Assembly (NCBI GenBank): GCA_016302935.1
Contig: JAEDMO010000001.1
Location: 141 to 64,140 of the forward strand
Direction: 5' to 3'
DNA from: Bacilli bacterium
GTDB taxonomy: Bacteria; Bacillota_I; Bacilli_A; RF39; UBA660
DNA length: 64,000 nucleotides
The position numbers and the translations under genes were made by a program. How positions within the stretch are numbered: position 1 is the stretch's first letter; every line of letters begins with the position of its first letter. The notes under the pieces were generated by a model, which saw nothing but the letters and a program-made list of their open reading frames with translations, had not been told where the DNA came from and searched no databases. Positions 4,429 through 46,104 of this stretch are shown here, in pieces.

Positions 4429-4440
4429 TTCTATACTCCT

Positions 4441-5121: not shown

Positions 5122-7994
5122 AATAAATCACCAAAATACTTTTTCATTTCAGATTCACTTAATCCAAAGAAAGATTTTGTTTGATTTAACATTATTGGTG
5201 TTCTTTTTTTGATATAGTTCCTTAATCTGTTTACATTGTCTTCCCAATTTTCCATAGTTATATTCCATCTTTCACAATTTCTAGGCATTTCTTTTTTATA
5301 TATTTGATATAATTCTTCTAATTTTTTGCTTAGTTTTTCATAAGTCCATATGTTGTTTAGGTTGTAGGATAATCTTTCTACATATCTTTTTTTGAATTCA
5401 TTATTTTTCATTAAATTTCTTAATACTGTGGTAGGTATTTGAAGTCTACTCATTGGGGTTGCACTAGTTGAAAATATATAGTAATTTTTAGTTACATTAA
5501 ACATCGCCCAATCTAAGTCGTAGAAGATAGCTCGCATTTTTCCATCATTAATATCCGGATGAGAATAAAATCTAGCATTTACTATATCGTTATTGGTGGT
5601 GTATGTTTCGGCAATCCAAAAATCTATTATGCTATCTATATCTATTTTTGTTTTTATGTATTCGTAATTTTTTTGATCTGCCATATTATGGTTACTTAGA
5701 TAGTTAACTATTTCTTTATACCAAGTGGTGCTTCCACATGTGACATTATTATCTATCCTTGTGATGTTTACTTTATCTTCAGATACATTATAGTGGTTTG
5801 CTATAAATTCTGATTCTATTTTTTCTCTAATATTATATATTCCCCAGTATGTTCCATTAATATATAGTATGATTGTTTTATACGCTTGAACTTCTACTGT
5901 TTCTAGTTCTTCTAATGTTGAGGTCATAAAAATATCAGCGAAAGCTGCATATTCATAATCTGTTGATGCACTTCTTAAAACCAAGGTATCAAATGAAGAA
6001 AAGTCTCTGTTATTAAAAACTTGGTAATTTAATTTACTAGCACCATATTCGCTTCTAAACTTTAATTGAAAGCTTTTTTTGGGTAATCCTCTAGTAGTGC
6101 CTCCGAATAGTTTTATTCCACATGGAATGCTGAATGAACTATTTTCTTCAAATAGTTCCGCGTATGCTGTTCTTTCTACTTCCCCACTATAGGTATTACT
6201 TTGAATTCTATTAAAATCTGATTGTTTTAATGATAAAGATAAAACTGGCAGAGTATGATTTTCATTTATTATGTATGATGAGGTAACTACCTCGCTCGGT
6301 AATTTATTATCTTCATAGCTTACTACTTTTAAAACACTAGTCTTGTTTAAAAAAATGGGACTGTTATATTTTTTAGATGATCTATTTGGAATGCTTCCAT
6401 CTAACGTATAATATATTGTCCCATTACCTTTTATTTCTATGCTAATATTTTGTACATCATTATATATTCCAGGAGCTACATTAATAATTGGTGTGTATGC
6501 TATTTGGTTTGTCCCGTTTTTGTTTTGGCTTTTTGGGGTGGGATTGCTGAAATAATATATTCCCGATTTTGTTCCTCTTCCCATACTGTAGCCAAGAGGA
6601 ACATTAGCAATGAAAATAGAATCTATTATTTTGTTATCTTTGGTTAAGTAAAGGCTTTCTATTTCAGATAATTTAAAATTTGTATGTTTGTACGTATTAT
6701 TGGATAAGTTGGTATCCCCAGAAGCCATTACTACATAGTACCCTCCAGGTTTTAGTGAAACATCTGGAAGATTATACATCGTTTTTAGATTATCGTTTGT
6801 GGTTAGATAGTAATCTTTTAGATTGATTGTTTTTTGTGTGTTATTTTTTAATTCTATCCAGTCGTAGTAATTACCTCCATTTTGAGGTAGGTACTCATTA
6901 TTTTGGTTCATAACTTCACTAATAATTAAATCGTTAGGATTGGTTAGATTTTTTTCATTAAAATTTTTTATACCACTGTTATTATTAGGGTAGCCGGGAG
7001 TTATATTATTGCTTATGTAATACTCTTCATTTTCATATATTAAGGCCATACCATTGGCTACTTGGTCATATTCTACTATATCTACTATTTTGTTGCCATT
7101 ACTTAATACTACTTCTCCAGTTTTTTCGGTTAATTTAAATCCAGTATAATTGTTTGAAACGCTACTTGTTGCAGTATAAAAAACATATACTTCTCCACTT
7201 TTTAGTGATATATCTGGTAATTTATAAGTAAATGGATGCTTAGTTGAATTTGATAGACTGTAAGTTTTTAGGTTAACTGTATTTTTGGATATATTAATTA
7301 TTTCGATATATCCTTCTAATTTACCGTTTTCATTTATGAAATTTCCTTTATTTCTTGGTAATATTTCATTTATTTTTATTTTATTTTCTTCGCTTTTTAG
7401 GCTATTTATATAATTTTCATAGCCTTGTTTTGTGTTAGGAAAACCTGGGGTTGGTAAATCTGATGTATATAGATTGCCGTTTAGATCCCTAGCGATTGTT
7501 TCGTTTTTATCAAGAGGCGTTACGGTAATGGCATCTATTACTTTACCATTAGCTTTGGTTAATACAAGCGTTTCTCCACCTTTTGAACTTAATCTAAAGT
7601 TAGCGTATAATCCTTCTTTTTTTTCACCGCATAGATTTATTATCAAATATTCTTTGGCTTTTATAATTGTTTCTGGAAATACCCATTTTATTTTACTTTT
7701 ATCGTCAGATAATCCATAATTTTTTAAGTTAATGTCATAATTATTCCCATTATAAAGTTCAACCCAATCATATTGGTTGCCATCTACATCGGCATATGTT
7801 CCTTTATTAGAAGACATGATTTCATTAATTATTAATTTGTTAATCTTTGATTCGCCATCGGGTTCATTTTCTTTAATCGTCAATTTTTTATTTGTATCAG
7901 TATCAATTGCTATTCCCACTATTATACCTAACACCACAACAGATAGGCATATTATGATAAAATGTAGGTTGTTTTTTAAAAATTTTGTATTCAT
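5118..7994 (-). CDS. CotH kinase family protein with three lamin-tail domains and a chitobiase/hexosaminidase-C-like domain
   Basis: 958 aa. N-terminal TM. Three repeats of the INE(I/V)M...YDW(V/I)EL(Y/K)N type (lamin-tail domain). A GIYNDVQNISIEIKGNGTIYYTLDGSIP segment (CHB_HEX_C-like). C-terminal half reads as a CotH domain. Confidence 0.75.
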   Translation of the reverse strand: MNTKFLKNNLHFIIICLSVVVLGIIVGIAIDTDTNKKLTIKENEPDGESKINKLIINEIMSSNKGTYADVDGNQYDWVELYNGNNYDINLKNYGLSDDKSKIKWVFPETIIKAKEYLIINLCGEKKEGLYANFRLSSKGGETLVLTKANGKVIDAITVTPLDKNETIARDLNGNLYTSDLPTPGFPNTKQGYENYINSLKSEENKIKINEILPRNKGNFINENGKLEGYIEIINISKNTVNLKTYSLSNSTKHPFTYKLPDISLKSGEVYVFYTATSSVSNNYTGFKLTEKTGEVVLSNGNKIVDIVEYDQVANGMALIYENEEYYISNNITPGYPNNNSGIKNFNEKNLTNPNDLIISEVMNQNNEYLPQNGGNYYDWIELKNNTQKTINLKDYYLTTNDNLKTMYNLPDVSLKPGGYYVVMASGDTNLSNNTYKHTNFKLSEIESLYLTKDNKIIDSIFIANVPLGYSMGRGTKSGIYYFSNPTPKSQNKNGTNQIAYTPIINVAPGIYNDVQNISIEIKGNGTIYYTLDGSIPNRSSKKYNSPIFLNKTSVLKVVSYEDNKLPSEVVTSSYIINENHTLPVLSLSLKQSDFNRIQSNTYSGEVERTAYAELFEENSSFSIPCGIKLFGGTTRGLPKKSFQLKFRSEYGASKLNYQVFNNRDFSSFDTLVLRSASTDYEYAAFADIFMTSTLEELETVEVQAYKTIILYINGTYWGIYNIREKIESEFIANHYNVSEDKVNITRIDNNVTCGSTTWYKEIVNYLSNHNMADQKNYEYIKTKIDIDSIIDFWIAETYTTNNDIVNARFYSHPDINDGKMRAIFYDLDWAMFNVTKNYYIFSTSATPMSRLQIPTTVLRNLMKNNEFKKRYVERLSYNLNNIWTYEKLSKKLEELYQIYKKEMPRNCERWNITMENWEDNVNRLRNYIKKRTPIMLNQTKSFFGLSESEMKKYFGDLL

Positions 7995-8067: not shown

Positions 8068-8090
8068 AAAAAAGTCCTAAATTTTAGGAT
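8068..8090 (-). terminator. Intrinsic terminator after the 74-aa gene
   Basis: tcctaaa/tttagga hairpin overlapping the stop codon, followed on the - strand by a T-run (an A-run on the + strand). Confidence 0.45.
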
Positions 8091-8308
8091 TTATAGATGA
8101 CTTTCTTTTTATTTTCTTCTTGTAGTCTAGCAAGATAATCTTTTTTTACTGTTATTGCAGAATGTATTAGTTTGTGGTCTTTATCATATTCTAAAATACT
8201 ACTTCTTACTGACTCTTCTTCTGTTTCAACTTCGTTATCATTTTCATCATAGTAAAATATGCAAGTGTATTCCCCGCCATTGGGAGTAGGTCCTTTAATT
8301 TCTTTCAT
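8084..8308 (-). CDS. Small acidic hypothetical protein (candidate immunity/partner of the upstream large protein)
   Basis: 74 aa. Starts 38 bp downstream of the 842-aa gene and is followed by a terminator. No recognisable family. Confidence 0.4.
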   Translation of the reverse strand: MKEIKGPTPNGGEYTCIFYYDENDNEVETEEESVRSSILEYDKDHKLIHSAITVKKDYLARLQEENKKKVIYKS

Positions 8309-8346: not shown

Positions 8347-10875
8347 TTATTTTTTTGAAAAATTAGGTTGGACTACTTCACTTAAAAATATATCATGAAT
8401 AATTTTTGCTCTGTTTGGATATTTTTGGTTAAATTTTTCAAATCCATTACGTTCTATATAAGCTAGAGAATCAGCGTAATCTTCAATTAATAATCCACGT
8501 TTTTGAAAATGATCTTGCCCGTAACTATAGTTGCTTCCTTCTTTATGTGGTATCCAAGAATTGTCTGCATTTACAGCCTCCGGCCAATATTGACTACTTG
8601 ATATCCAATGTTGAGGGTCTGCGAGGTGACCCATTTCGTGTAACACTGATCCGTAATGAAATTTGTTATTAACTACCTCATTTGCATTATATAATACGAT
8701 GGTTTTCTCCTTTTGATAAGATGCTGCATATACATTGATTCTTTGCTCAAGCTTGCCAGTAATAACGACATTAATCAATCCTGTTTTATTGTATATTGCT
8801 GGGTATTTATTTTTTAAATATTCAAACACCGCCATTTGTTCTTTTAAAAATGTGTAATCAGCATCAACCATTGATTCGTCAATATAATACATAACACCAT
8901 GCCCATACTTATCAATATCAGAACTTTCATAATATGTGTAGTATTTATTTGTACTGGATGGATTTTCTATTTTAAACGTTGTTTCGTTTATAGTTACTTC
9001 ATTTATATTTGCTGCATTAAATCTTGATTCTACCATTAAATAAGTTAATGCTTTGTTGATATCTTCTGGCTCAACAGTTATGATAGTTTTATTGCCATAG
9101 TAATCACTATATTCAAATTCTACTGTTTTTTTGTTGTTAATGCAATTCTGAAAGAATTCAAGATATGATGGATTTTGACTAATTAATCTTTTTATTCTTT
9201 CTACATTAAACGACATACTATCTGAAGTTTTTGTTTCTTCTATATTATCATAGGTGCCGTACGGAAATGCAATAGTCTTGGCCTCACAATATTCTTCAAT
9301 AACTTTGTTAACTTCCATTTTGATAATTTTATCTTTTACTTTAATATATACTTCTTGGGCTCCTGTTAAAACTGCTGACCATAAGAAACCAATTATAAAG
9401 GCTTTCCCTGCTTCGTCATTTAATTTATCCATATCTATAGGTTCCCCTAATATGAACGCTGATGCACCGGCATTCATATATGTCTGCAAGGATTCTCCAA
9501 CTCCTGCTTTTAACATTTTACTTAATGTATGTGCACTATCGCTATTTAAATATGGAATATTTCCCAATAATCTTGTCACAGCATAATATGAAGCACCAAT
9601 AGCCAGTCCATAAACACTCGACTCTACTAGTCCATGTCCATTGATTAATGCTTGGTTTTTAGCGTTTCCTGCAGCACTTGCACCGCCTAATACTTGTGCA
9701 ACCGTAGCTCCTGCTGCTGGGGTTGCTACAGCACTCACCAATATAGATGCCGCAATTGTCGGCGTCATTCCTCCTATGGTGTTGCCTACATTATATCCCC
9801 CTTTTACCCAATTAGTATCTTTTATTGCTTCTAGTATATACATTTGAGCATATTGGTTTTGAGATATTATACCTTCTGTAGCAAACACATTAACTATTCC
9901 ATCAGCAAAATTATCTATGCCATCAATTACCCCCTTACCCGTACCTGTTAGTGTGGAAAGAGCATTTTCATTTATTTTTCCATCTGAATCTGTTATTAAT
10001 GAAAGAAAATTGTCTGCTTCTATTTTCCCAGCATTTCTGTTTAATCTATCTTGTATGTCTCTTATATAATTATCTGCTGCAAATGGGTTTTTGGTTTCAC
10101 ATAAATAGCAATACATATTTTTTTCTGATTCAGTCAGCGTTCCGCTTGGATATTTTCTTTCTAAATCAAAGGTATAGTGACTATCAAAATATGCAATTTT
10201 TTTATCATTTTCTCTTTTCTTTACCCATTCTTGAAATTCTTTGGTTTCCATAATTTCTAAATATGGTAGTTCCTTTTTTTGTTGAATTGCTAAATATCTT
10301 TGCATTTTTAATTCATTGCTTGATATATATAATTCATCCTTTTTTTTCAAATATTCTTCATATGTCATTCCTACAATCTCTTCATATTGAGCTTCAAAAT
10401 TTTTTTTATAACCTGCTTCTACTGCTTTGATTGTCTCATTTACCTCTGCTTCCCATTTAGTTTCATCAAATTCATAGTTTTCATCAAAACACTTATTTGG
10501 ATCTAATCGGGCAATTCTTTCGTATAAATATTCTTCTGGTGTCATATAGTAAGGATTTAAAGGTTCCGTTCTTACAAGGCCGTATTCTTCTCCATGTTTT
10601 AAAAAATTTTGATGTTTTTCTATTAAATCTTTATATTCATTATCAATTTGAGATATCGTTTTATCTAGCGTTTCTATATATTCATCTGCAAATAACATTT
10701 CATTTGCAACTGTATTTGAATTATTATTATAACTTTCATAATCTACTTCTATATTGTATTCATCTGGAATTGCTATGTCTTTAATTTTTGTTACATTTTG
10801 ACTGTTTATATTACTAGATGAGTCTTTTTTTAGATTAAATTTAGATGTATCTACATTAAAATTAAATTGAGACAT
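8347..10875 (-). CDS. Large protein with Gly/Ala-rich (glycine-zipper-like) hydrophobic core and C-terminal HExxH metallopeptidase-like motif; candidate secreted effector/toxin
   Basis: 842 aa. No signal peptide. Central ~150-aa Gly/Ala-rich stretch (GGMTPTIAASILVSAVATPAAGATVAQVLGGASAAG ... GLAIGASYYA ... IIGFLWSAVLTGA). C-terminal VLHEMGHLADPQHW motif. Own promoter-like element upstream. Confidence 0.5.
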   Translation of the reverse strand: MSQFNFNVDTSKFNLKKDSSSNINSQNVTKIKDIAIPDEYNIEVDYESYNNNSNTVANEMLFADEYIETLDKTISQIDNEYKDLIEKHQNFLKHGEEYGLVRTEPLNPYYMTPEEYLYERIARLDPNKCFDENYEFDETKWEAEVNETIKAVEAGYKKNFEAQYEEIVGMTYEEYLKKKDELYISSNELKMQRYLAIQQKKELPYLEIMETKEFQEWVKKRENDKKIAYFDSHYTFDLERKYPSGTLTESEKNMYCYLCETKNPFAADNYIRDIQDRLNRNAGKIEADNFLSLITDSDGKINENALSTLTGTGKGVIDGIDNFADGIVNVFATEGIISQNQYAQMYILEAIKDTNWVKGGYNVGNTIGGMTPTIAASILVSAVATPAAGATVAQVLGGASAAGNAKNQALINGHGLVESSVYGLAIGASYYAVTRLLGNIPYLNSDSAHTLSKMLKAGVGESLQTYMNAGASAFILGEPIDMDKLNDEAGKAFIIGFLWSAVLTGAQEVYIKVKDKIIKMEVNKVIEEYCEAKTIAFPYGTYDNIEETKTSDSMSFNVERIKRLISQNPSYLEFFQNCINNKKTVEFEYSDYYGNKTIITVEPEDINKALTYLMVESRFNAANINEVTINETTFKIENPSSTNKYYTYYESSDIDKYGHGVMYYIDESMVDADYTFLKEQMAVFEYLKNKYPAIYNKTGLINVVITGKLEQRINVYAASYQKEKTIVLYNANEVVNNKFHYGSVLHEMGHLADPQHWISSSQYWPEAVNADNSWIPHKEGSNYSYGQDHFQKRGLLIEDYADSLAYIERNGFEKFNQKYPNRAKIIHDIFLSEVVQPNFSKK

Positions 10876-10947
10876 GTTAATTTACACCTTCTTTCTTAAT
10901 TTGTTGTTAATCTTGAAAATTGTTAGTATTTTAAGGCTTTCCGACTT

Positions 10948-10976
10948 ATTTTATAAGTTCATTCTAAAACTTGCAA
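10948..10976 (-). promoter_or_regulatory. Sigma-A-like promoter for the 842-aa gene
   Basis: On the - strand: TTGCAA, 17-nt spacer, TAAAAT. Lies about 70 nt upstream of the ATG at 10875. Confidence 0.4.
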
Positions 10977-11586
10977 TTTAATATTGAAGTCTGCTGAAAA
11001 ATTCTTTTCTATATTTATTATGGTATTATAGATTTTTTTGCTGTAGAAATAATGTTGACTATAATCAATAGCACTCTTTTGTTCAATAATTATCGTAATT
11101 TGATGATAGTTCTGTATTTAATGTATAATCTAATTTTTTTTAATATTATATTCATCCACTACTATTAATTTTTCATTAACATTTTGTTTTTCTTTGTTTA
11201 ACTAATACCTCATTATTAATAGAAATGATACCAAGCATATATTATAACGCTTCTTCGAAAAGGCGATATTATTATATTCATTAAACCTTGTTTTAAATAA
11301 CTATTCCTATTTTCAAATTGCTGTCTTAACTGGGTATAAAAAATTGCAAATTATTAGATTTTCTAATCAGCTAAAAGAAAAGGATATTGATTCTATAATA
11401 GTTCGCGGTTTAACTAATAGACCTTCTAATAATTCACTTTCCACCAAAGAATTTGAATTTATTAAGAACTTTAAGAATAAATATCCAGTTATTAGTATAT
11501 CACAATTTCAAGATATTTATCATGAAGATGTTATTTGAAATCCAAAAATGAAAAATAATTTTTTAATTGTGCTTTTATTTTATATA

Positions 11587-13455
11587 TTATCTTTTAACTA
11601 GTGTTTTAACAATAGCATGGTTTATAGTACCACTGATAGTTTTTGTAGGTTCACCATACTTTTTGTCATACTTGACTATCCACTGTAGTAAGTCATCAAA
11701 TTTTTTATATTCTTCTTTTTGTTTTTGTCTTGTACTAGATGAATAGCCTCTAGTGGAACTTGAGCCTATTTCTAAGGTAACTATTTTTATATTTTTATTT
11801 ACTGGATTATAATATTCTTTATGTTTATCAATATCATTATATATTAATAATGGGTCTCCATTATAAGTTAAACGGCCATAAAAGTCACTGAAGATAAATC
11901 CTGATGCTACTTCTGTTGCATAATCTGATAGGCTTCCTTCTCCGCCTCCTCTTAATTCTTTTTCTTCGTTTATTTTGCTATATCCTATGTGTTTTCTAAT
12001 GGCATCTCTAAAATGAGCGGATTTACTGGTTTTGTTTTTCTCATCATATAATTTACCACCATATACTCCTTTTCCTGATTGGTGATAATCTATTAGGTAT
12101 GAAGCAGTAGGAATATATTTATTTAAAACTGCCATTACGGCTTGGGTTTCAGATTCACTTCCTAAATATGGCCCACAGTAGTGTGAATATGAAGGTTTTT
12201 CTTCATATCTTGAGTGGCTGTTGCCAAATTTATATTGCATCGCATTAGAGGTAGGAAAATTTCTTCCTATATCAACATAGTTGGCGTTGGCTTTTAGACT
12301 ATATTTTCCGTTTATTACCATTTCACGTCCATCTGGATTAACACAAGGAATTGCTACAAATTTATAATCGGTTAATATTTTTTTAGCATTTTCTTCTGTT
12401 TCTGCTTTTCTTACTAGGTCGCTTAATCCTTTTAATATATATGATGGTCCGGCGGTTTCTCTAGCGTGAACTCCTCCTGTTAAAATTATTGTTTTACTGC
12501 CAGTACCTACTTCTAGTAGATATATTTTTCTTCCTTGTTCACTATAGCCTGCGATATATGTTTTGACCATACTATGTCTGGTTAGATTTTCAACAAAGTT
12601 ATCAATATCTTTGTATGAATAATACTTGCTTATATCATAGTCAATATCTTCGTAAGTTCCACTTGATACTACTTCTTTAAATGTTTTATTTTTTGTACTT
12701 TGATATTCATTTGTAGGCATTCCCTTGGCTAAAAATTCACCTTCAGTCGTTTGTTCATTCATTTTTTCAATCGATTCAGCAGCGTAGGTTATATTTGATT
12801 CGTTGTTTAGAATTTGACTTATGGCATTTTTATACATTGAACTAACATTTTCTACTGTAATTGGTATGACATTCCAATTATATTTTAATTCATTATCTTC
12901 TATTTCAATAAATGGTAAGTTATTAATTTTGACTTTCGTAGCAGTTGTTTCACTCGATATCCCATTGTTTATTGCTTTTGTTTTGTTTTGAATATCAGTT
13001 AACCCTTCTATTTGCTGAGCTATATTAGCTCCTATTTGAATAATTATTGAATCCATGCTACAACCAGTTCCTGTAGCATTACTTTGAGCTTTTGATAATA
13101 TATCCAATGTTTCTTTTATTTTATTTATAGATTTTTGGCAATCATCACTGTTATATATTAAATACTTATTTTTATATGGTATATCATTTTGCTCTAAAAT
13201 TGTATCTAATTTGATAAAATAATTATTATTAATTTCTGTACAACTAAGTATAGTATCTTCTAAAGCGTTTACTTTTTTACGATCATTAGTAATATATTCT
13301 ATGAATGTTTTTATATTATCATCATTCCAATAACTTTCTACTTTTTCAGCGTTTATATATATCTGTTCTTGACCTTCTATGTATGAATTAATCTTACTTT
13401 TTAGGTTTTTATTTTCTTCTATTGAAGATTGTATATTTATACGAAAAGATATCAT
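11587..13455 (-). CDS. Candidate T7SS effector: N-terminal helical (LXG-like) region fused to an M14 zinc carboxypeptidase (gamma-D-Glu-DAP peptidase-like) domain
   Basis: 622 aa. No signal peptide. Residues ~300-600 carry the complete M14 site: GGVHARETAG (HxxE), CVNPDG, IDYHQSG (second His) and TLEIG (catalytic Glu). The start overlaps the upstream 100-aa gene by 4 nt (ATGA). Confidence 0.65.
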   Translation of the reverse strand: MISFRINIQSSIEENKNLKSKINSYIEGQEQIYINAEKVESYWNDDNIKTFIEYITNDRKKVNALEDTILSCTEINNNYFIKLDTILEQNDIPYKNKYLIYNSDDCQKSINKIKETLDILSKAQSNATGTGCSMDSIIIQIGANIAQQIEGLTDIQNKTKAINNGISSETTATKVKINNLPFIEIEDNELKYNWNVIPITVENVSSMYKNAISQILNNESNITYAAESIEKMNEQTTEGEFLAKGMPTNEYQSTKNKTFKEVVSSGTYEDIDYDISKYYSYKDIDNFVENLTRHSMVKTYIAGYSEQGRKIYLLEVGTGSKTIILTGGVHARETAGPSYILKGLSDLVRKAETEENAKKILTDYKFVAIPCVNPDGREMVINGKYSLKANANYVDIGRNFPTSNAMQYKFGNSHSRYEEKPSYSHYCGPYLGSESETQAVMAVLNKYIPTASYLIDYHQSGKGVYGGKLYDEKNKTSKSAHFRDAIRKHIGYSKINEEKELRGGGEGSLSDYATEVASGFIFSDFYGRLTYNGDPLLIYNDIDKHKEYYNPVNKNIKIVTLEIGSSSTRGYSSSTRQKQKEEYKKFDDLLQWIVKYDKKYGEPTKTISGTINHAIVKTLVKR

Positions 13456-13754
13456 AATATGCCTCCTGTACTGATAGAGTTATTGCTTTTTTCTAGTTCA
13501 GATAATTCGGTTAATCTAGCTATTTCTTGCTCTATTTGGGGCATAGCATTGCTAATGGCATTAATATCTGCTTCTATATTTTGTTTGATATTAGTTAGTT
13601 CTTTGTTCTTATATAACTCTCCGTTAATATTTAAGCCTATTTCATTTAATTTTTTTATGCTTTCAATATTACTTGCACATACTTGTAAACAACTCTGAAC
13701 TATTTGTAATTTGTCTATTAATTGTTTTAATTTGTTTATTTCTTCTTCCATCAA
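13452..13754 (-). CDS. Small helical protein, candidate effector-targeting/adaptor (Lap/DUF3958-like) factor
   Basis: 100 aa, predicted all-helical. Translationally coupled to the M14-domain gene. This position is typical of small partner proteins of LXG toxins. Confidence 0.45.
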   Translation of the reverse strand: MMEEEINKLKQLIDKLQIVQSCLQVCASNIESIKKLNEIGLNINGELYKNKELTNIKQNIEADINAISNAMPQIEQEIARLTELSELEKSNNSISTGGIL

Positions 13755-13835: not shown

Positions 13836-14546
13836 TTAATGGTTACTTACACCGCTTCCTATATTTGTAGCAGCTTGTCCCATTTCACCTGATGCTGTAG
13901 TATCCGCTTCACTATAACCAGTATCTGTGTGTTGATCTACATATTCCATTAAGTCATCGATATCCGTATTTAACCTTTTTATTGTTTCTCCTACAGCTTC
14001 AATAAATTGATCAATACTTGCTGTTTGATTTCCAAAGAAAGCTTGGCAAGATTCATATTCACTGTATATGTTTTTAATGCCTGTTTCAATTTCAGTTTTA
14101 TATTCTGTTAAAGCTGTTTCTATTAATGCTCCACCGCCGGTTACAATCCCCAATTTTTCTCCAGCAAATTTATTTTCATTTAATTTAACAACACTCTTCA
14201 TATCAATCAAATTAATGGCGGGAGCAGTAAAATCATAATTTACGGTTGCTACTGAGGTATCGATTCTATTATTATTTTGAAATTCTTGCCATGCATTTGC
14301 TAAATTCACAATCGTTTGAATCATGTTAGTAACTAATCCTGTGGTCTTGTCATATAATGTGTTTATACGATCTGCGATTGTTTTTTCATATGCTTGTTCG
14401 TCGACCCCTTTCCAATTATTTTGCATTACTTTTGGAATGTTAGGCCACCCATGTGAAATTGTTTCTCCTACTTTTTCATAGCTGTTAGCTATATCTTGCA
14501 TTAGTTCTTGAATTTTCTCTGGTTGATAACCGATAAATCCATTCAT
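13836..14546 (-). CDS. WXG100-like domain protein with C-terminal extension (candidate T7SS substrate or LXG-associated adaptor)
   Basis: 236 aa. MQNNWKGVDEQAYEK carries a W-x-G motif at about residue 45 inside a helical N-terminal ~100 aa. Lies 15 bp downstream of the esxA-like gene. Confidence 0.5.
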   Translation of the reverse strand: MNGFIGYQPEKIQELMQDIANSYEKVGETISHGWPNIPKVMQNNWKGVDEQAYEKTIADRINTLYDKTTGLVTNMIQTIVNLANAWQEFQNNNRIDTSVATVNYDFTAPAINLIDMKSVVKLNENKFAGEKLGIVTGGGALIETALTEYKTEIETGIKNIYSEYESCQAFFGNQTASIDQFIEAVGETIKRLNTDIDDLMEYVDQHTDTGYSEADTTASGEMGQAATNIGSGVSNH

Positions 14547-14561: not shown

Positions 14562-14873
14562 CTAAAATTGGTTTGAGTTTGCAGAATCTAAATTGGCTTT
14601 TACTGTATCATCTTGTTCTTTATAACTCTTCACAACTTCTTCAATAGTAATATAGTAGTTAATATTATTATTATCAATCATCTTGGTATATTTGAATTCA
14701 TTAGAAATTTTATTTGTTATGAATGACAAATCATTACCCTCATAACAACTCTCTAATACTTTGATTTGCTTATTTAATTCCATTTCTAAATCTTCTACTA
14801 ATATCTGTTGTCCTTCTATTTTTGTTTGGATTTCTTCCATACCTTCGTAATTTATTCCTCGAATACTTATCAC
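14562..14873 (-). CDS. WXG100 family (EsxA-like) protein, YxG variant
   Basis: 103 aa. A central ESCYEGNDLSF (Y-E-G) stands in for the W-x-G turn. Length and helical character are right, and it directly follows yukD/essC. It has its own consensus promoter. Confidence 0.55.
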   Translation of the reverse strand: MISIRGINYEGMEEIQTKIEGQQILVEDLEMELNKQIKVLESCYEGNDLSFITNKISNEFKYTKMIDNNNINYYITIEEVVKSYKEQDDTVKANLDSANSNQF

Positions 14874-14903
14874 CCTTTCTGCATACTCATTACCTTTATT
14901 GTA

Positions 14904-14932
14904 ATTTTATTACATTCATATTAATAAGTCAA
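14904..14932 (-). promoter_or_regulatory. Consensus sigma-A promoter for the esxA-like gene
   Basis: On the - strand: TTGACT, 17 nt, TAAAAT, about 30 nt upstream of the ATG at 14873. Confidence 0.5.
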
Positions 14933-14957
14933 GAAAATTGTGTATAATTTACATCAA

Positions 14958-15212
14958 TTAAATGAGAATTATCCTACTTCCATTAACTATTTCGGTATCT
15001 CTAATGATAACATCTGATTGATAGGTTTTCCCACTTGAAGTATCGATGATAATGTGGGTATTAATTGGATCAAATGATATATCTTGTAATTCGCTTATAG
15101 ATTTTGATAATAGAATAGTTAATTGACCTATTCTAATGTTAATAGGAATATATATATTATATTCTTCTTGTATTGTTGGCACATATACCTTTACTAATAT
15201 TTTATTCTTCAT
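14958..15212 (-). CDS. esaB: YukD/EsaB ubiquitin-like T7SS protein
   Basis: 84 aa. Sequence pattern resembles the YukD ubiquitin-fold family. Overlaps the essC stop by 11 nt. Confidence 0.65.
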   Translation of the reverse strand: MKNKILVKVYVPTIQEEYNIYIPINIRIGQLTILLSKSISELQDISFDPINTHIIIDTSSGKTYQSDVIIRDTEIVNGSRIILI

Positions 15213-18200
15213 CAGTATTTTCCTCCTCTTCGGTCACTAATTTTATTAATGTACCACTAGCATTTTTAATTATCCATGCATAATTGCTATCTATTTGTTC
15301 TTTATACTTCTTACTTACATCATTGATTTTAATATTAATTTGGTCAATAATACCATTACCTATCCATATTCCATTAGCATTATTAATTATTTCGTTATAC
15401 CAACTTTCAAAAGCAACTTTCTTTATTTTAAAACTTGAATCTATGTATATTATAGTTACATTTTTAATTAGCTTGATTTTGTTGATAAATTTGTTAAAGT
15501 CGTTTGTATTAATATTTAATTTAAACTTTTCTAGGCCGATTATCATTATTACTACTTCATATTGAGTGTTAACTATTTTTTGTTCGATAAAATTATCTAT
15601 ATTTTTTATGGTTTCATCAAAGTTTGTGGTGTAATAATTGTTGAAGTTGTTTTTAATACTATTTAAGGCTTCTTCAGCATCTAATGCTATGCTGATGGTA
15701 TTACCCGTTTTTTTAAACATATTAGTAATGTTTTTTGCTATACCGAGGCAATCTTCTATTTGATTAGATGCTATTAATGTTCCTTTATCTTTCTTGAAAT
15801 TATATGTATATATATTTAATTCTTCTTTATCAATGCCTAATGGTATGTTTTTGATAGTTATATTGTCACTGGTTACCATATTAGGAGTTATCTTTTCTGG
15901 CAATACTGGTATTTTAATGGCTTTATATGTGTTTGCTTCTGATAATTTTTTAGATAATGTAGTTATGAATTCTACTAATTTATTTTCTTCAGTTATTTTA
16001 GCTGTTTGGAACTCATATGCTAGATCTTTTTTAAATATACCTCGTCCAACAAAATCGCTAGGATAAACATTACCTATTTTGCCTAAAATGTTGATATAAT
16101 CATTTTTATCATTCATATCTAGTGCATAAACATTACCAAAATTTCTTGTTAAGCGGCTAAACATACCAGTAGTACTATTAGCGGTGATGACCATTAAAAT
16201 GCCATATCTTTTACCATCTCTGGATATTTTGGTTATTAATTCCTCATATTGACTATACGATTCTTTTAAAGCATCATAATTATTAATTACTACGACGTAT
16301 ATTGGCAATTTATTACCACTGTTTTGACAATATGTTTCATAATCTCCATTATAATCTACAAATAATTTTTTTCTTGATTGAATTTCATCTTCTATCATTG
16401 ATAACATTTTATTTATTTTTTCATTTTCGTTTGAAAAGCAAATGTCTCCTACATGAGGTAGTTTAGAGAATATTCTTAACGATTCCGAACCAAAGTCAAA
16501 TATATAGAAATTGATTTCTTCCGTTTTATATGAAGTACATGTTGAATATATTAATGCTTTTATAAACATTTCTCTGCCAACACCGGATAACCCATATACT
16601 AAAGTATTACCTTCAGTATCTAAATTTATCGCTACTAAATCTTGTCTTTGATTTGATGGGTCATCATATTCTCCTATAATAGCAGTTATTTTGTTTGTAG
16701 GTGTGAATTTATATTTTTTTATTAATTCATCAATATAGATATCTTTTGGGATATTATCTAGCCATAATCTTCTAGCAAATGTATTTTCTCTTGTAGCAAT
16801 GTTAGTTATATATTTGAGTATATTGGATAGTTCATCTCCTTGCGAGATTACCCTTTGTTTGCTGTTGTCCGCAATGTCTACTTGTTTGATGATATCTCCT
16901 GTATTATCAACAAACATTATTGAACGATCTATCTCTTGAGTAACCACATCCTTGGGTATGTATGGGCTTCCGCTGTAACCTGATTGACCCAAAACAAGCA
17001 TTTCGTTGTAACCAACCTGAAGATAGAAGCGACCAACGTTAGTTAATTCGGCTGCATTAGGACATTTTATCATTTCATTGCTGTCTGCTTTGTCTTGAAC
17101 TTTTAAACATACCCTAAATTTACTGTTACTCCAAATTTGATCATTAACTACACCACTTGGCTTTTGGGTTGCCAAAATCAAGTGCACTCCTAATGATCTA
17201 CCGATGCGGGCAGTACTAATTAAATTGTCCATAAATTCTGGCTGTTGCGATTTTAATTCTGCGAATTCATCACATATTATAAACAAATGAGGGATAGGAC
17301 TTTTTATTTTGTTTTCACGGTATAATTTTTGATATTTATATATATCCATGGTACTTTCACCTAATTCATCCCTTGCTTCATTAAAACTTTGTTGTCTTCT
17401 TTTTAATTCGCTATCGATACTAACTAGTGTACGATTTAATTCCGTTTTATCTAGATTAGTTATTGTTCCTGATAAATGAGGTAATTTTATATTATTTTTT
17501 TTGTTTTCAAAAGCCCCCGCTAAACCTCCTCCTTTATAATCAATTAAAATAAAAGATACTTCATTAGGACTATAATTGACTGCCATTGATAAGATATATG
17601 TGATAATAAACTCTGATTTGCCACTGCCAGTAGTACCAGCAATTAATCCATGTGGTCCATGCATTTTTTCATGCAAATCTAAATAAATAATATCATTAGT
17701 ATCATTCACGCCAATAGGTGCCCTTAAATACTTGGTAGGATTGTTAATCCGCCATCTGTTCATAGCATTTAGTTGCTCTATTTTACCTATTTTATACATA
17801 TCTAAAAAACTTAGAAAACTAGGTAAATTTCTTTTATCTAACTCAAACGCTATAGGGATGTTAGCCAGTATTTGAGCGCATTCTTGCATATCAAAATTGT
17901 TTCTTATTTCGTCTTGAAATGATTGCTGATAACTATTATTAATACTTGTTGATAAAACAGTTGATGAAGAACTTCCAATATTTATAAACGTTTCGCATTC
18001 GCTTGGCATTTTTCCAAGTCTACTTTCTTTAACAATAAAACTAAATCCATAATTGTTTTTTTCGGCTAATATTTTTTCTGTAATTCCTAATTTACGAATA
18101 TTCAGATAATCATCTGTTAAGATTAAATAATATGGTAAATAAGTATTAGATTCTTCGCCATCTTCGTTTTCTACATTGTCAGAAGAAGATTGGTTTTGTT

Positions 18201-19773
18201 CTATTCTTTTTGCTAATCTTGCTTCAAGATATGAACCTATTTTTTTATATTCTTCATCGTTAGTGGCAAAAAATCTCAATTCCTTATCATTACTAAAACA
18301 ATGGGGTAACATTTTTATATATTCCCAATTATTTTCGTTTGCTTCGTTTGTTAAGACTACTAATTTTAAATCATCATAACTATGATAGGTAATTAATTGT
18401 AATAATATATTATTTATAAATGGTGTTATTTTGTCTTGTATTCCCATAATCGCTGTTACTTTTTTGTTGTAAAACGAAAAGCCAATAGGGACGCGATATA
18501 ATGTCTTATATTCGTTTATCATATCTTCCGCTGTTTTCTTTAGGGGATCTTCTTCTATAATAAATTCATCTTCACTAAAATTAATATTAGCATCCAAAGG
18601 AATATCTCCAATACCTATATTTACTGTTAGAAAGTCTTGTTGAGATATTTTTCTTTCCCATAAAGTACGTTTTCTATTTTTAATAATGTCATAGCATTCT
18701 TCTAAGGATAATAAATTTTCTTTTAGTATTTGGCGTTGATTAATTGTTTCTAAGTCTAATAGACGTTTCTTTTCCTTCAGATATACATTATATTTTTCTA
18801 CTCTTCCTTTTTCTTTCTTTTTCAATTGCTTTCTACGGTAACGTTTAGTTAAATTAGGCCACAATAATATGCTTAATAGCATTGCAAAGGCAATGGTTAT
18901 GCTACTCCATGAATTTGCTAAAGTCGCTGTTTTGTTTATTAATTTAGTAATGACATTAGCAAGGCTAACAATTGATATTGCTCCCATAGTTAACATTGGA
19001 CCCGCTACTAATATAAACGGTACTTCTTCTTCCTTGAACGGAGATGGAGGAGGTGCTATAGTTAATTCATATGTTTTAATAAATCTTCTTAATCTTGGTG
19101 TTTTAAAAAAATAATCTTCTTCGTCATAATAGTCTTCTTCATTTACTTCCGTATCATTTTGATTAATGATTGGTATGTCCACCGGAGATATTGCTGACAT
19201 GTTTAATCTTATTTGATTATTAGGATTATTTATAATTAGCATTTTATTGATAATGGTGAGGCTTAGCCCCATTATAAAAATAGTATCTCCATTTTTTATA
19301 GGAGTTATTTTTTTATTTACTCGGTCATTGTTTAAATATACTACGGAGTTATCACTTATTGTTAATATCAAACCATTGTTTTTATATGATAACGATGCAT
19401 AATTGGGACTGATATAGCTATTGTTATAAATTATGTTGGCTTCGCTGTTATTCCCTATAACTATGTCTGCATTATCATTTATTTGATATAGTTTCATGGT
19501 AGTATCATAGCTACTTAAAGTATATATTAAATAGTTATTTTTATTATTTGCAAAAGTATAAAATTGTTCATTTTCTAACTTCTTACTTTCTATATATTTT
19601 TGTCCCTCTATTATTTTATTTTCCTTGTTGCTCAATAAATACCAAGCATTATCGAGAGCTTCAATATTTATTAGTTTGTTATTATTTGAATCGACAATCC
19701 AAAAACTTCCTTCTATTTTACTGGGCAAATCAGTATATTTTAATTTATCTGCATACAAGGTTACTATTTTCAT
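15202..19773 (-). CDS. essC: Type VII secretion system FtsK/SpoIIIE-family ATPase EssC
   Basis: 1523 aa. N-terminal FHA-like region, then two TM helices. D1 carries Walker A GTTGSGKSE and Walker B IICDEFAEL; D2 and D3 have degenerate P-loops (GLSGVGRE). Confidence 0.9.
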   Translation of the reverse strand: MKIVTLYADKLKYTDLPSKIEGSFWIVDSNNNKLINIEALDNAWYLLSNKENKIIEGQKYIESKKLENEQFYTFANNKNNYLIYTLSSYDTTMKLYQINDNADIVIGNNSEANIIYNNSYISPNYASLSYKNNGLILTISDNSVVYLNNDRVNKKITPIKNGDTIFIMGLSLTIINKMLIINNPNNQIRLNMSAISPVDIPIINQNDTEVNEEDYYDEEDYFFKTPRLRRFIKTYELTIAPPPSPFKEEEVPFILVAGPMLTMGAISIVSLANVITKLINKTATLANSWSSITIAFAMLLSILLWPNLTKRYRRKQLKKKEKGRVEKYNVYLKEKKRLLDLETINQRQILKENLLSLEECYDIIKNRKRTLWERKISQQDFLTVNIGIGDIPLDANINFSEDEFIIEEDPLKKTAEDMINEYKTLYRVPIGFSFYNKKVTAIMGIQDKITPFINNILLQLITYHSYDDLKLVVLTNEANENNWEYIKMLPHCFSNDKELRFFATNDEEYKKIGSYLEARLAKRIEQNQSSSDNVENEDGEESNTYLPYYLILTDDYLNIRKLGITEKILAEKNNYGFSFIVKESRLGKMPSECETFINIGSSSSTVLSTSINNSYQQSFQDEIRNNFDMQECAQILANIPIAFELDKRNLPSFLSFLDMYKIGKIEQLNAMNRWRINNPTKYLRAPIGVNDTNDIIYLDLHEKMHGPHGLIAGTTGSGKSEFIITYILSMAVNYSPNEVSFILIDYKGGGLAGAFENKKNNIKLPHLSGTITNLDKTELNRTLVSIDSELKRRQQSFNEARDELGESTMDIYKYQKLYRENKIKSPIPHLFIICDEFAELKSQQPEFMDNLISTARIGRSLGVHLILATQKPSGVVNDQIWSNSKFRVCLKVQDKADSNEMIKCPNAAELTNVGRFYLQVGYNEMLVLGQSGYSGSPYIPKDVVTQEIDRSIMFVDNTGDIIKQVDIADNSKQRVISQGDELSNILKYITNIATRENTFARRLWLDNIPKDIYIDELIKKYKFTPTNKITAIIGEYDDPSNQRQDLVAINLDTEGNTLVYGLSGVGREMFIKALIYSTCTSYKTEEINFYIFDFGSESLRIFSKLPHVGDICFSNENEKINKMLSMIEDEIQSRKKLFVDYNGDYETYCQNSGNKLPIYVVVINNYDALKESYSQYEELITKISRDGKRYGILMVITANSTTGMFSRLTRNFGNVYALDMNDKNDYINILGKIGNVYPSDFVGRGIFKKDLAYEFQTAKITEENKLVEFITTLSKKLSEANTYKAIKIPVLPEKITPNMVTSDNITIKNIPLGIDKEELNIYTYNFKKDKGTLIASNQIEDCLGIAKNITNMFKKTGNTISIALDAEEALNSIKNNFNNYYTTNFDETIKNIDNFIEQKIVNTQYEVVIMIIGLEKFKLNINTNDFNKFINKIKLIKNVTIIYIDSSFKIKKVAFESWYNEIINNANGIWIGNGIIDQINIKINDVSKKYKEQIDSNYAWIIKNASGTLIKLVTEEEENTDEE

Positions 19774-19800
19774 ATTGTCATCACCTCTATCTTAATAATA

Positions 19801-19829
19801 ATTTTACCATAATAATTTTAAGTTTTCAA
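19801..19829 (-). promoter_or_regulatory. Sigma-A-like promoter for essC
   Basis: On the - strand: TTGAAA, 17 nt, TAAAAT, then a GAGGTGA RBS ahead of the ATG at 19773. Confidence 0.45.
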
Positions 19830-19844
19830 CGGGATATTAATTTT

Positions 19845-19870
19845 AAAAAAAAAAACCTAAAATTTTAGGT
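19845..19870 (-). terminator. Intrinsic terminator after rpsR
   Basis: cctaaaa/ttttagg hairpin followed by T10 on the - strand, between the rpsR stop and the essC promoter. Confidence 0.55.
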
Positions 19871-19871
19871 C

Positions 19872-20090
19872 TTATTTAACATATGGTATTAAGGCCATAA
19901 ATCTAGCTCTTTTTACTTCCATAGCTACATGTCTTTGATGTTTTGCACAGGTACCAGTTACTCTTCTTGGTAGTATTTTACCAGTATCTAAATTAATATA
20001 TTTACTTATTATTGCAACATCTTTATAGTTTACTGTTTTTCCAGCACACATATGACATATTTTTTTTCTTTTTTTATGAAACTCTGCCAT
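19872..20090 (-). CDS. rpsR: 30S ribosomal protein S18
   Basis: 72 aa. The KILPRRVTG ... KRARFMALIPY motif is conserved in S18. Confidence 0.95.
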   Translation of the reverse strand: MAEFHKKRKKICHMCAGKTVNYKDVAIISKYINLDTGKILPRRVTGTCAKHQRHVAMEVKRARFMALIPYVK

Positions 20091-45830: not shown

Positions 45831-45912
45831 ATTATCACCTTCCTATTATTATGTTTAGTATATCAAAAAAATTTAAAAAAATAAATAAAAAGAAGGAAAA
45901 AAACAAAAAAGA

Positions 45913-45941
45913 ATTGACAATGATTAAATTAACTTATATAA
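45913..45941 (+). promoter_or_regulatory. Consensus sigma-A promoter for rpmH
   Basis: TTGACA, 17 nt, TATAAT, about 40 nt upstream of the rpmH ATG. GGAGGTG RBS. Confidence 0.6.
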
Positions 45942-45981
45942 TATAGAAGAATTTTATTTGGGTTATATTGGAGGTGGAATT

Positions 45982-46104
45982 ATGAAGAGAACTTTTCAAC
46001 CTAATAATAGAAATAAAAAGAAAAAGCACGGTTTTTTTGCTCGTATAAAAGGTAGTGTACTTAATAAAAGAAGAGCTAAAGGTCGTAAAAAATTATGTGC
46101 ATAA
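45982..46104 (+). CDS. rpmH: 50S ribosomal protein L34
   Basis: 40 aa: [40 protein letters not shown]. Too short for the ORF track; I found it by eye. Confidence 0.9.

Follow-up and report, generated by a model that had tools for sequence, protein, structure and literature searches.

A reduced type VII secretion gene cluster downstream of rpsR in a Bacilli genome

The window analysed here, a 64-kb stretch of DNA, carries a reduced type VII secretion system (T7SS) gene cluster on its minus strand, 3' of the rpsR terminator. The genes occur in the order essC, a YukD-like gene, p103, p236, p100 and p622, with p842 and then a 74-aa ORF further downstream. We read the cluster as an intact T7SS module that is maintained by selection and has a reduced, previously unclassified arrangement that is not T7SSb, a reading to which we give a probability of roughly two in three. 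The host is an uncultured low-GC member of the Bacillota, probably of gut origin. The DNA inspected comprised the 64 kb of this genome and up to 24 kb of each relative.

Gene content and extent of the module

The essC gene (15202..19773, minus strand) encodes a TsxC-type membrane ATPase of 1523 aa. Profile searches match it to NCBIfam TIGR03928 at 1001 bits (cutoff 778) over residues 221-1513 and to Pfam FtsK_SpoIIIE, and a Pfam FHA match of 24.6 bits covers residues 104-165. Two transmembrane (TM) helices (~252-277 and 289-308) are followed by a stalk/DUF region that leads to the first ATPase domain, D1, which has a canonical P-loop (GTTGSGKS at 713) and has kept its Walker A and B motifs. 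In D2 the P-loop has degenerated (GLSGVGRE at 1061), and none was recognisable in D3. Bacillus subtilis YukB (9QKS) aligns with EssC at 406 bits, beginning at residue 291, and EccC5 does so at 147 bits. A sequence-only reading had described this protein as an EssC with these domains and a single canonical P-loop, and the profile searches bear it out. The cluster does in fact contain the multi-domain membrane ATPase of the FtsK/SpoIIIE-type EccC/EssC family by which a T7SS is recognised. An FtsK-like ATPase devoted to DNA translocation or conjugation, as opposed to protein secretion, would likewise match FtsK_SpoIIIE, and EssC does give weak Pfam matches to the TraG-D_C and HerA domains. This explanation carries almost no weight in view of the full-length match to the EssC equivalog and to the stalk, DUF and D1 of YukB, the invariable linkage of essC to YukD-like and WXG100-type genes, and a window free of transfer genes such as those for a relaxase or an integrase.

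The 5' end of the YukD-like gene (14958..15212, minus strand) overlaps the 3' end of essC. On its own the 84-aa product has no Pfam, NCBIfam or PDB match. It is linked by phmmer (1e-23 to 1e-11) to a family found directly downstream (+1) of essC in 65 related loci, and Pfam YukD (PF08817) recognises 15 of the 31 members sampled from it, with a best E of 3e-7. The family profile also weakly matches ubiquitin-like domains in the PDB. By family-level transitivity we therefore assign the protein to the YukD/EsaB/TsxB family, in agreement with the earlier proposal, and through its family the cluster has the near-universal ubiquitin-like protein of T7SSs.

Two WXG100-type genes follow. The first, p103 (14562..14873, minus strand), encodes a 103-aa TsxA-like protein that does not match WXG100 HMMs by itself, and its start codon is uncertain (GTG 14873, ATT 14864 or ATG 14840, with gene callers using M12). 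It aligns with WXG100-positive, TseA-like neighbours, with Y-E-G occupying the W-x-G column. AlphaFold2 predicts a two-helix hairpin (pLDDT 81.6; helices 9-43 and 50-100, turn 44-49) with Y-E-G at the turn. The best Foldseek matches are nearly all EsxA/ESAT-6 structures, among them 2vrz (TM 0.71/0.85) and 3gvm (TM 0.78/0.83), with E-values that are weak (0.06-0.5), as one would expect of so simple a fold. The alignment and the predicted fold together identify p103 as a WXG100-fold protein, as had been suggested from its Y-x-G turn.

The second gene, p236 (13836..14546, minus strand), encodes an N-terminal WXG100-like hairpin with a ~140-aa C-terminal helical extension. Its motif W45-x-G47-x-D49-E50 is conserved, with W45 and D49 invariant in the family, and hhalign places it in register with the WXG100 alignment (probability 70.5%, E 3.9e-5). 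The PF06013 score is 23.3 bits, under the 27.3 cutoff, and the AlphaFold2 model is of low confidence (pLDDT 54). By sequence, the true, conserved W-x-G motif of the cluster belongs to p236. At 50% identity the family falls into 197 clusters, almost all of ~240 aa and mostly full-length; at E <= 1e-10 there are matches in at least 145 such clusters. The compact clade has p236 as its signature protein. A WXG100 hairpin protein thus lies beside the ATPase, as expected of a T7SS, with p103 and p236 each scoring below the Pfam gathering score.

The essC, 84-aa and 103-aa ORFs lie on the minus strand just where the sequence-only reading had placed them, and the compact core that it drew from the three is supported. 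Its end point at 14562 is too short, as p236, p100 and the p622 family are conserved and also belong to the module. Every module ORF is intact. Intergenic gaps within the module are no longer than 85 bp, leaving no room for a hidden gene, and no ORF inside it contains TM segments other than the helices of EssC itself. The module had also been called an insertion. We searched for flanking repeats and for a compositional shift and found neither, so this description was not retained.

The rpsR intrinsic terminator (19845..19873, minus strand) follows the rpsR stop as a 9-bp stem that closes a 4-nt loop and is followed by a U11 run (RNA fold -7.5 kcal/mol, z = -1.8), confirming the terminator named earlier. 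With fewer than three G-C pairs in its stem, it escaped a consensus scan. In the intergenic stretch that separates this terminator from the essC ribosome-binding site (GAGGTGA) is a promoter-like site (19801..19829, minus strand) with TTGAAA, a 17-nt spacer, TAAAAT and an extended TG before the -10 (10/12 matches). A second such site (14904..14932, minus strand; TTGACT, 17-nt spacer, TAAAAT; 10/12 matches) falls within the 85-bp gap between the YukD-like gene and p103. Both sites are present as proposed, but hexamers resembling the consensus are hardly more frequent in this AT-rich DNA than in shuffles (62 vs 50.7 +/- 7.7), so that only their position makes the two promoters plausible.

Relationship to described T7SS subtypes

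A universal TsxA/B/C trio and a classification extending to T7SSc-j have been described (PMC11217815). We built an NJ tree of 77 related EssCs, midpoint-rooted, with no outgroup, support values or reference T7SSb or T7SSc-j sequences, in which the window EssC falls within a partner-less clade sister to a T7SSe-type clade. All loci with STK, PP2C, FHA or TseI genes are in the T7SSe clade. The compact clade consists of uncultured gut MAGs labelled as Bacilli and Tenericutes. The NCBIfam model TIGR03928, although named 'EssCb', gives similar scores (1001-1082 bits) to EssCs of the T7SSe, intermediate and compact types, and its score does not identify the subtype.

Models for EssB/YukC (PF10140 and NCBIfam), EsaA and EssA were run on 40 window proteins, and none matched. 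The remaining window genes were judged to be housekeeping from their translations, with precomputed Pfam calls in agreement for 14. The window contains no EsaA/YueB-like polytopic protein, its largest membrane-associated ORFs being an LTD-CotH protein and p842, neither with more than one TM-like stretch. It also contains no EssA/YueC, the small TM proteins there being MntP, DUF2752 and TM2. The statement that these 64 kb lack all three components accordingly stands. Nor were EssB or EsaA recognisable in 80 related loci at +/-10 kb, as judged from representatives of recurrent families together with ORF size and TM pattern rather than from every ORF.

The cluster does share features with the T7SSb of S. 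aureus (Ess) and B. subtilis (Yuk), including an EssC with two TM helices, three ATPase domains and an FHA without phosphothreonine-binding residues, a separate YukD/EsaB-like protein, WXG100 proteins, and helical N-domains on polymorphic substrates that have small partner proteins. A canonical T7SSb with EssB, EsaA and EssA encoded elsewhere in the genome would account for an EssC above the 'EssCb' cutoff. It would also account for the FHA, as a degenerate FHA is typical of T7SSb EssC and binds the EssB pseudokinase without phosphorylation; decay of the FHA alone is thus no proof that a partner is absent. We nevertheless regard this as very unlikely. The 'EssCb' model scores T7SSe-type proteins equally, the window EssC clusters beside T7SSe, and the 80 related loci contain no recognisable EssB or EsaA. 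The EssC FHA region, moreover, could not be aligned with the FHA of YukB, which is the EssB-binding surface, and described T7SSb systems cluster the EssB, EsaA and EssA genes with essC (PMC12637312). The substrate N-domain, unlike those of T7SSb, has no Pfam LXG match. On the grounds of the T7SSe-related clade, the uninformative model and the absence of recognisable EssB and EsaA across the 80 loci, the T7SSb assignment was rejected, and with it the earlier 'type VIIb' label. Because EssC is sister to T7SSe and the related loci are without recognisable EssB and EsaA, absence of EssB, EsaA and EssA is to be expected.

T7SSe comprises TseA, A2, B, C, D, F, H, I, J and K (Garrett, Higginson & Palmer 2024, Microlife uqae013) and, with 33-39% identity, is the nearest sampled EssC clade. 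Both it and the present module belong to Bacillota and have an N-terminal FHA on the ATPase, and the order essC, tsxB-like gene, p103, p236 parallels tseC, tseB, tseA, tseA2. A TseB counterpart and a non-identical WXG100 pair thus lie directly downstream of the ATPase gene, as in T7SSe, with p236 atypically long for a second WXG protein because of its extension. The membrane Ser/Thr kinase TseD and the PPM phosphatase TseF are present in T7SSe-clade loci, yet neither the window nor any locus of the compact clade encodes them. The same searches gave no homologue of the large Ig-domain envelope lipoprotein TseI, of TseJ (DUF6382-FHA), or of the small single-TM proteins TseH and TseK. The D2 P-loop, canonical in T7SSe-type EssCs, reads 'RE' in the compact clade. 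The FHA signature GR..SxxH..SxNG is complete in 17/31 EssCs from partner-bearing loci, with SxxH in all discordant ones, and in only 4 of 47 from partner-less loci. Those four look like T7SSe, as three keep TseI and the tree pairs L020 with L066. The group to which the window EssC belongs has lost all three of these phosphothreonine-binding elements; the FHA itself persists, and the window protein reads GN, SPNY and SDNS in their place. The real reduction is loss of the T7SSe-specific partners, namely the Ser/Thr kinase, PP2C, DUF6382-FHA, vWA-FHA and Ig-domain lipoprotein.

Tier-B relatives carry a 566-aa lipoprotein.

It could be argued that the system is of T7SSe type and not truly reduced, with its partners (kinase, phosphatase, FHA adaptor, Ig lipoprotein) or functional analogues of them encoded at unlinked loci. 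T7SSe is indeed the nearest described relative, a small fraction of each genome was inspected, and the Tier-B lipoprotein makes extra envelope components possible in the clade. We judge this unlikely, since such partners are tightly linked in the T7SSe clade and occur within 10 kb of no locus of the partner-less clade, the phosphothreonine pocket that is presumed to dock kinase-dependent partners is gone from the compact group, and the gene content of the module is constant across at least five contexts.

The 'relatively simple' T7SSg (TsgA1, A2, B, C, L; Garrett et al. 2024) resembles the module in having few parts, two WXG100-type proteins, a ubiquitin-like protein and an ATPase. However, TsgC lacks the FHA that EssC has here, and neither a DUF5050 beta-propeller (TsgL) nor adjacent Tad pilus genes were present among the window proteins scanned, which sets the module apart from T7SSg.

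Candidate substrates and conservation

The small helical 100-aa protein encoded by p100 (13452..13754, minus strand) has no family match in Pfam or NCBIfam. Its gene overlaps the start of p622, and its position is conserved in the related loci L018, L040, L001, L004, L087 and L088. It is a candidate Lap-like targeting partner of p622. The p622 gene (11587..13455, minus strand) encodes a candidate substrate with a helical, conserved N-domain of ~200 aa, which bears W-N-D at 43-45 and DNxLK[YF]xW at 187-194 and is common to orthologues with different C-termini. Profile comparison of this N-domain with WXG100 by hhalign gives a probability of 88.8% (E 2.5e-6). The C-terminus matches PF00246 Peptidase_M14 at 97 bits (residues 289-483) and, in the PDB, carboxypeptidase B (2e-8) and MpaA (1e-5). 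Its HxxE zinc-binding motif is intact, with HARE aligning with HAREW of carboxypeptidase B, and the M14 fold and HxxE together place p622 in the M14 family.

T7SSb LXG toxins with their Lap1/Lap2 complexes (TelA-LXG-LapA3-LapA4, PDB 8GMH) show the same layout, with one or more small helical genes just upstream of a substrate whose helical N-domain, profile-similar to WXG100 hairpins, precedes a variable enzymatic C-domain. In contrast to those systems, no Pfam LXG, DUF3130 or DUF3958 match was obtained here, and W-N-D stands in place of L-x-G. LXG (PF04740) matched none of five p622-family N-domains at E <= 1, and the p622 N-domain had no LXG match in the PDB. No immunity gene follows p622, and an M14 carboxypeptidase cargo with no obvious immunity gene would be unusual for LXG/Lap systems.

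A second candidate substrate, the polymorphic HExxH protein p842 (8347..10875, minus strand), has no Pfam or PDB match. Residues ~58-507, which include a Gly/Ala-rich hydrophobic stretch, are conserved with L018, L004, L021 and L041, while the C-terminal ~330 aa are unique and carry HEMGH. The gene is absent from strain L084. Directly downstream, the 74-aa ORF (8084..8308, minus strand) is called as a gene in L081-L083 and has no family match; its position makes it a candidate immunity protein.

The same order of six genes is seen in five or more genomic contexts (the window, L018, L040/L001/L088, L004 and L087) and in partial form in L003. An identical EssC protein occurs in the same neighbourhood in about 200 assembly blocks. 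Between L040 and L001, dN/dS is 0.029 for essC, 0.026 for the tsxB-like gene, 0.22-0.25 for the small helical genes (p100 0.22) and 0.40 for the substrate. The essC and YukD-like genes are under strong purifying selection, with dN/dS ~0.03. These values bear on whether the cluster is what remains of a larger T7SS, non-functional and in decay, as its missing accessory genes and its degenerate FHA, D2 and D3 P-loops might suggest. Such decay is highly improbable given the selection on both the core and the small genes, the intact ORFs, the preserved D1 Walker motifs, the identical EssC in so many assemblies and the mostly full-length p236 clusters. EccC and EssC offer precedents for D2 and D3 sites with a regulatory rather than a catalytic role, with which the degenerate sites seen here are compatible.

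Proposed mechanism and significance

For the selected, reduced module we propose a mechanism by analogy with described systems. As in T7SSa and T7SSb structures, EssC would oligomerise, probably as a hexamer, with the two-TM hairpins and stalk forming a membrane conduit. The YukD-like protein may clamp the FHA, DUF and D1 regions of EssC and so stabilise the assembly; a YukD clamp on these regions and a model with the EssC hexamer as central channel have been described (PMC12637312). The WXG100-type p103 and p236 could serve as co-secreted ATPase activators, and p100, possibly with p103 or p236, may create a composite export signal by bundling with the helical N-domain found in p622 and in related substrates. 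Hydrolysis at D1 would then drive the M14 carboxypeptidase and the HExxH protein out of the cell, and their targets would most likely be cell walls or neighbouring cells. Regulation would be independent of phosphorylation, in contrast to what is proposed for T7SSe.

Taken further, the six genes may be a self-sufficient, naturally minimal T7SS in which an EssC oligomer and one ubiquitin-like protein make up the entire membrane machine and the WXG100-type proteins activate and target. We hold this stronger proposal tentatively, at somewhat less than even odds; that the six-gene module alone suffices for secretion is the least certain step of the whole account. If true, the module would be self-sufficient with no pseudokinase, kinase, or EsaA-like or TseI-like envelope component. 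It would then represent an eleventh subtype of T7SS, one that is common among uncultured gut Bacilli as judged from the at least 145 p236 clusters at 50% identity, and could reveal the minimum parts that a T7SS machine needs.

The EssC module beside rpsR

The three ORFs that the sequence-only reading had joined into a compact type VIIb secretion core are all present on the - strand: essC (15202-19773), a gene for an 84-aa YukD-like protein (14958-15212) and p103, encoding a 103-aa protein (14562-14873). The 1523-aa product is indeed an EssC, matching TIGR03928 (NCBIfam) over residues 221-1513 with 1001 bits against a cutoff of 778, and Pfam FtsK_SpoIIIE and FHA (residues 104-165, 24.6 bits). 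A basic stretch comes after its two transmembrane helices (about 252-277 and 289-308), and the protein has a canonical P-loop in D1 (GTTGSGKS, 713), a degenerate one in D2 (GLSGVGRE, 1061) and none recognisable in D3. Its best match among solved structures is B. subtilis YukB (9QKS, 406 bits), from residue 291 onward only; in that search the FHA region gave no alignment with YukB.

The terminator that had been placed after rpsR is a hairpin with a 9-bp stem and a 4-nt loop, followed by U11 (-7.5 kcal/mol). Both proposed promoter-like sites, one each for essC and p103, can be found in the sequence, yet their support is positional because such sites are scarcely more frequent than chance in this AT-rich DNA (62 versus 50.7 +/- 7.7 in shuffles). 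Rfam returned no RNA family at the gathering threshold anywhere in the window.

Searched singly against family models and the PDB, neither the 84-aa nor the 103-aa protein gave a useful match, and PDB matches of p103 to retinol-binding protein and ferritin were rejected as noise. The family of the 84-aa protein lies directly downstream of essC in 59 related loci. Pfam YukD is matched by 15 of 31 sampled members (best E 3e-7), and the family profile weakly matches ubiquitin-like domains. By sequence, the protein is a divergent member of the TsxB/YukD family (TsxA, TsxB and TsxC being the generic names for WXG100, YukD-like and EssC proteins). p103 aligns with WXG100-positive proteins of about 100 aa from related loci, its Y-E-G occupying the W-x-G column; PF06013 is matched by 20 of the 25 sequences in this alignment, and the alignment profile matches EsxA structures at 1e-12. 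The helical hairpin expected of p103 was recovered by AlphaFold2 (11 sequences, pLDDT 81.6) as helices at residues 9-43 and 50-100 joined by a turn at 44-49. Foldseek with this model returned almost only EsxA/ESAT-6 proteins, with TM-scores up to 0.78/0.85 and weak E-values (0.06-0.5), as expected since the hairpin fold is so simple. The start of the p103 gene is ambiguous (14840-14873), with three candidate codons on the - strand: a GTG at 14873 abutted by the ribosome-binding site, an ATT at 14864 that lies 5 nt after GGGTGA and lines up with the MRGI start of orthologues, and the ATG at 14840 chosen by gene callers, which gives 92 aa.

For the other apparatus genes, 40 window proteins were scanned against Pfam, ten of them also against NCBIfam; the remaining genes were judged housekeeping from their translations, in agreement with precomputed Pfam calls for fourteen. 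On this basis EssB/YukC, EsaA and EssA are absent from the 64-kb window, as had been proposed, which likewise yielded no Ser/Thr kinase, PP2C, vWA, DUF6382 or DUF5050 protein. The gaps within the module are too short for a hidden gene. Direct repeats flanking the module, sought as evidence of insertion, amounted to short, chance-like AT-rich matches.

The replication-origin region lies at 45000-62000 (rnpA, yidC, jag, mnmE, mnmG, rsmG, parB, dnaA, dnaN, recF, gyrB), GC skew changes sign near 45 kb, and the module is about 35 kb from dnaA. Judged from gene content, spoIID, spoIIID, spoIIR and comK indicate a spore-forming, Bacilli-type host. At 41874-43637, 22 kb from essC, a DUF87/HerA-like ATPase with a weak FtsK_SpoIIIE P-loop match adjoins a P-II-like protein and a DUF1538 membrane protein; members of its family occur at most 10 kb from essC in four other loci (L003, L021, L041 and L060).

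Downstream genes and candidate substrates

The sequence-only reading ended the module too early. Genes continue downstream on the same strand with gaps of at most 85 bp, beginning with p236 (13836-14546), whose WXG100 match is below threshold (23.3 bits against a cutoff of 27.3). A word-indexed homologue search gave only two or three relatives for p236, an apparent rarity that proved to be an artefact of sensitivity, as exhaustive searching brought the family to 197 clusters (50% identity), almost all of about 240 aa in length. Its members show no variation at W45 and D49 and are at least 90% conserved at G47 and E50. Profile-profile alignment with hhalign put the motifs into register with those of WXG100 (70.5% probability, E 3.9e-5); an AlphaFold2 model from a 4-sequence alignment was too poor for a fold search (pLDDT 54). 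Iterative HMM searches with the helical proteins also reached the WXG100-like family, possibly through drift on coiled-coil composition, and hhalign with motif register was used instead.

Next on the - strand are p100 (13452-13754), a small helical protein, and p622 (11587-13455), which joins an N-domain of about 200 aa to a C-terminal M14 zinc carboxypeptidase with its HxxE intact; the carboxypeptidase would be expected to cleave gamma-D-Glu-mDAP in peptidoglycan stem peptides as MpaA does. The N-domain is common to orthologues whose C-termini are unrelated. It lacks a Pfam LXG match; compared as profiles, it resembles the WXG100 hairpin (88.8%, E 2.5e-6), its W-N-D occupying the WxG position. 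PDB profile searches with this domain and with the p236 family returned only designed coiled coils.

Further along is p842 (8347-10875, - strand), with a conserved N-terminal stretch of about 500 aa and a unique C-terminus of about 330 aa that carries HEMGH and found no match in the PDB; it is followed by a 74-aa ORF (8084-8308), a candidate immunity gene. Between p842 and the M14 effector gene, the 712-bp stretch at 10876-11586 holds no operon-strand ORF longer than 22 aa, and no candidate immunity gene for the carboxypeptidase was found there. A related strain, L084 (ENA ERZ27280617 k141_793269), matches the window at 99.1% identity over the stretch that runs from 29775 to 11545. Identity ends 42 bp past the p622 stop, after which L084 has Post_transc_reg, secDF and rpsB, whereas the window has the 712-bp gap, p842, the 74-aa ORF and an LTD-CotH/VTC/DUF4956 block. 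Because L084 diverges there, p842, the 74-aa ORF and the CotH block are strain-variable. The cluster at 2370-7994, which adjoins the toxin block and is missing in L084, encodes a 958-aa protein that combines three lamin-tail domains with chitobiase-C/Fn3-associated domains and one CotH kinase domain; it also holds genes for proteins with VTC and DUF4956 domains and for one of 467 aa without a Pfam match.

Related loci and the EssC tree

Taking one genome per species, a scan for EssC relatives yielded 80 loci, in which ORFs were called and neighbourhood proteins clustered; sorting the loci by EssC similarity gave three tiers. The closest EssCs are 62-64% identical and come from MAGs labelled Bacilli or Mycoplasmatota. 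Tier A (EssC identity at least 52%) comprises the window and loci L018, L001, L040 and L004, with L002 and L003 in part; these carry essC, a tsxB-like gene, p103, p236, p100 and a p622-family gene, with variable upstream flanks. Additional lookups placed L087 and L088-L090 here as well, with identical gene order. In tier B (40-45%), from MAGs that carry the labels Bacilli, Tenericutes or Clostridia, essC, sometimes in tandem, is accompanied by a tsxB-like gene, DUF4176 proteins, small helical proteins of other kinds and, in part of the loci, a 566-aa protein. The latter was considered as an EssB-like pseudokinase and rejected, being a lipoprotein with no Pfam match that is absent from the group of the window. 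Tier C (33-39%, mostly Clostridia) contains essC, a tsxB-like gene, two WXG100 proteins, an Ig-like lipoprotein of about 680 aa, DUF6382-FHA, PP2C, Ser/Thr kinase and vWA-FHA proteins, the arrangement that Garrett, Higginson and Palmer 2024 (PMC11217815) described as T7SSe.

All tiers score alike on TIGR03928 (1001-1082 bits), so this model cannot support the 'VIIb' label first given to the locus. A neighbour-joining tree of 77 EssCs, midpoint-rooted and built without reference TsbC to TsjC sequences, outgroup or support values, places every partner-bearing locus in one clade and none in the other, which consists of tiers A and B; tier A is monophyletic inside the latter. In L012, L013, L015, L053 and L003 essC is present twice within about 10 kb, each copy accompanied by a tsxB-like gene of its own, and the paired copies fall into different sub-clades. 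In L088 (GCA_948728675.1, 13079-20263) the gene directly downstream of the compact module encodes an ADP-ribosyltransferase toxin domain (PF03496) within a protein of 2394 aa, which supports a toxin-export role for the clade.

The phosphothreonine-binding signature of the FHA domain (GR..SxxH..SxNG) is kept in T7SSe-type EssCs, while the group of the window has none of its three elements. In a motif search on ungapped sequences the full signature was present in 17 of 31 EssCs with partners at the locus and 4 of 47 without, counts that are descriptive only as the sequences are phylogenetically non-independent. All four partner-less exceptions look T7SSe, their sampled flanks being free of kinase, phosphatase and FHA-adaptor genes. 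T7SSe-type EssCs have a canonical D2 P-loop; in the compact group it reads RE. T7SSb binds EssB through a likewise degenerate FHA, so decay of this domain alone is no proof that partners are absent. They may possibly be unlinked to the module, as the view spans 64 kb here and no more than 24 kb per relative.

That the locus is a decaying remnant is disfavoured by selection and by distribution. In the unsaturated pair L040/L001, dN/dS is 0.029 for essC and 0.026 for the tsxB-like gene, 0.22-0.25 for p103, p236 and p100, and reaches 0.40 in the p622-family gene; an identical EssC protein turns up in about 200 assembly blocks, with the rpsF-ssb-rpsR-essC arrangement at every place listed. Synonymous divergence in the same pair is uneven: dS is 0.72-0.79 for essC and the tsxB-like gene, about double the 0.32-0.34 of p103 and p236, which suggests recombination within the module.

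Proposed mechanism and significance

In T7SSb cryo-EM, YukD touches the FHA domains, DUF and D1 hairpin of YukB, contacts that hold the YukB FHA in place for binding by the pseudokinase YukC, and the central channel is modelled as a YukB hexamer (PMC12637312). By analogy, the membrane machine here would be an EssC oligomer with the 84-aa protein as its clamp. p103 and p236 may act as co-secreted activators of WXG100 type, and the helical N-domains of p622-type substrates could be bundled by p100, perhaps with p103 or p236, in an LXG-Lap-like manner, with export presumably powered by D1 hydrolysis. The joint loss of the phosphothreonine pocket and the kinase/phosphatase genes suggests that operation is phosphorylation-independent.

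We regard the locus as a reduced T7SS of a new form; T7SS diversity and 'simple' subtypes were known before. To our knowledge, every experimentally studied T7SS needs several subtype-specific membrane partners beyond the ATPase. These are EccB, D and E in T7SSa and EssA, EssB and EsaA in T7SSb, and the nature of the actual conduit in Gram-positive systems is still debated. The survey by Garrett et al. took in RefSeq only and lists no subtype of A, B and C components alone, its simplest being T7SSg, which has an ATPase that lacks FHA, a DUF5050 protein and neighbouring Tad pilus genes (PMC11217815). In the literature accessible to us, neither a 'T7SSk' nor a minimal A/B/C-only system was found, nor any later account of such a subtype.

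The locus carries the RefSeq-based c-j classification over to uncultured Bacillota of the gut, among which the system seems to be common, and candidate T7SS cargo gains an M14 carboxypeptidase and an HExxH protein. Loss of the kinase/phosphatase partners together with the FHA pocket supports the proposed phosphorylation control of T7SSe-type systems. If the missing partners prove unlinked, the finding becomes one more arrangement of a known system; it would gain substantially if the module proves self-sufficient. A lineage with only the three near-universal parts (ATPase, ubiquitin-like protein and WXG100) plus substrates would allow a test of a minimal T7SS by reconstitution, and would also offer a small target for structural work.
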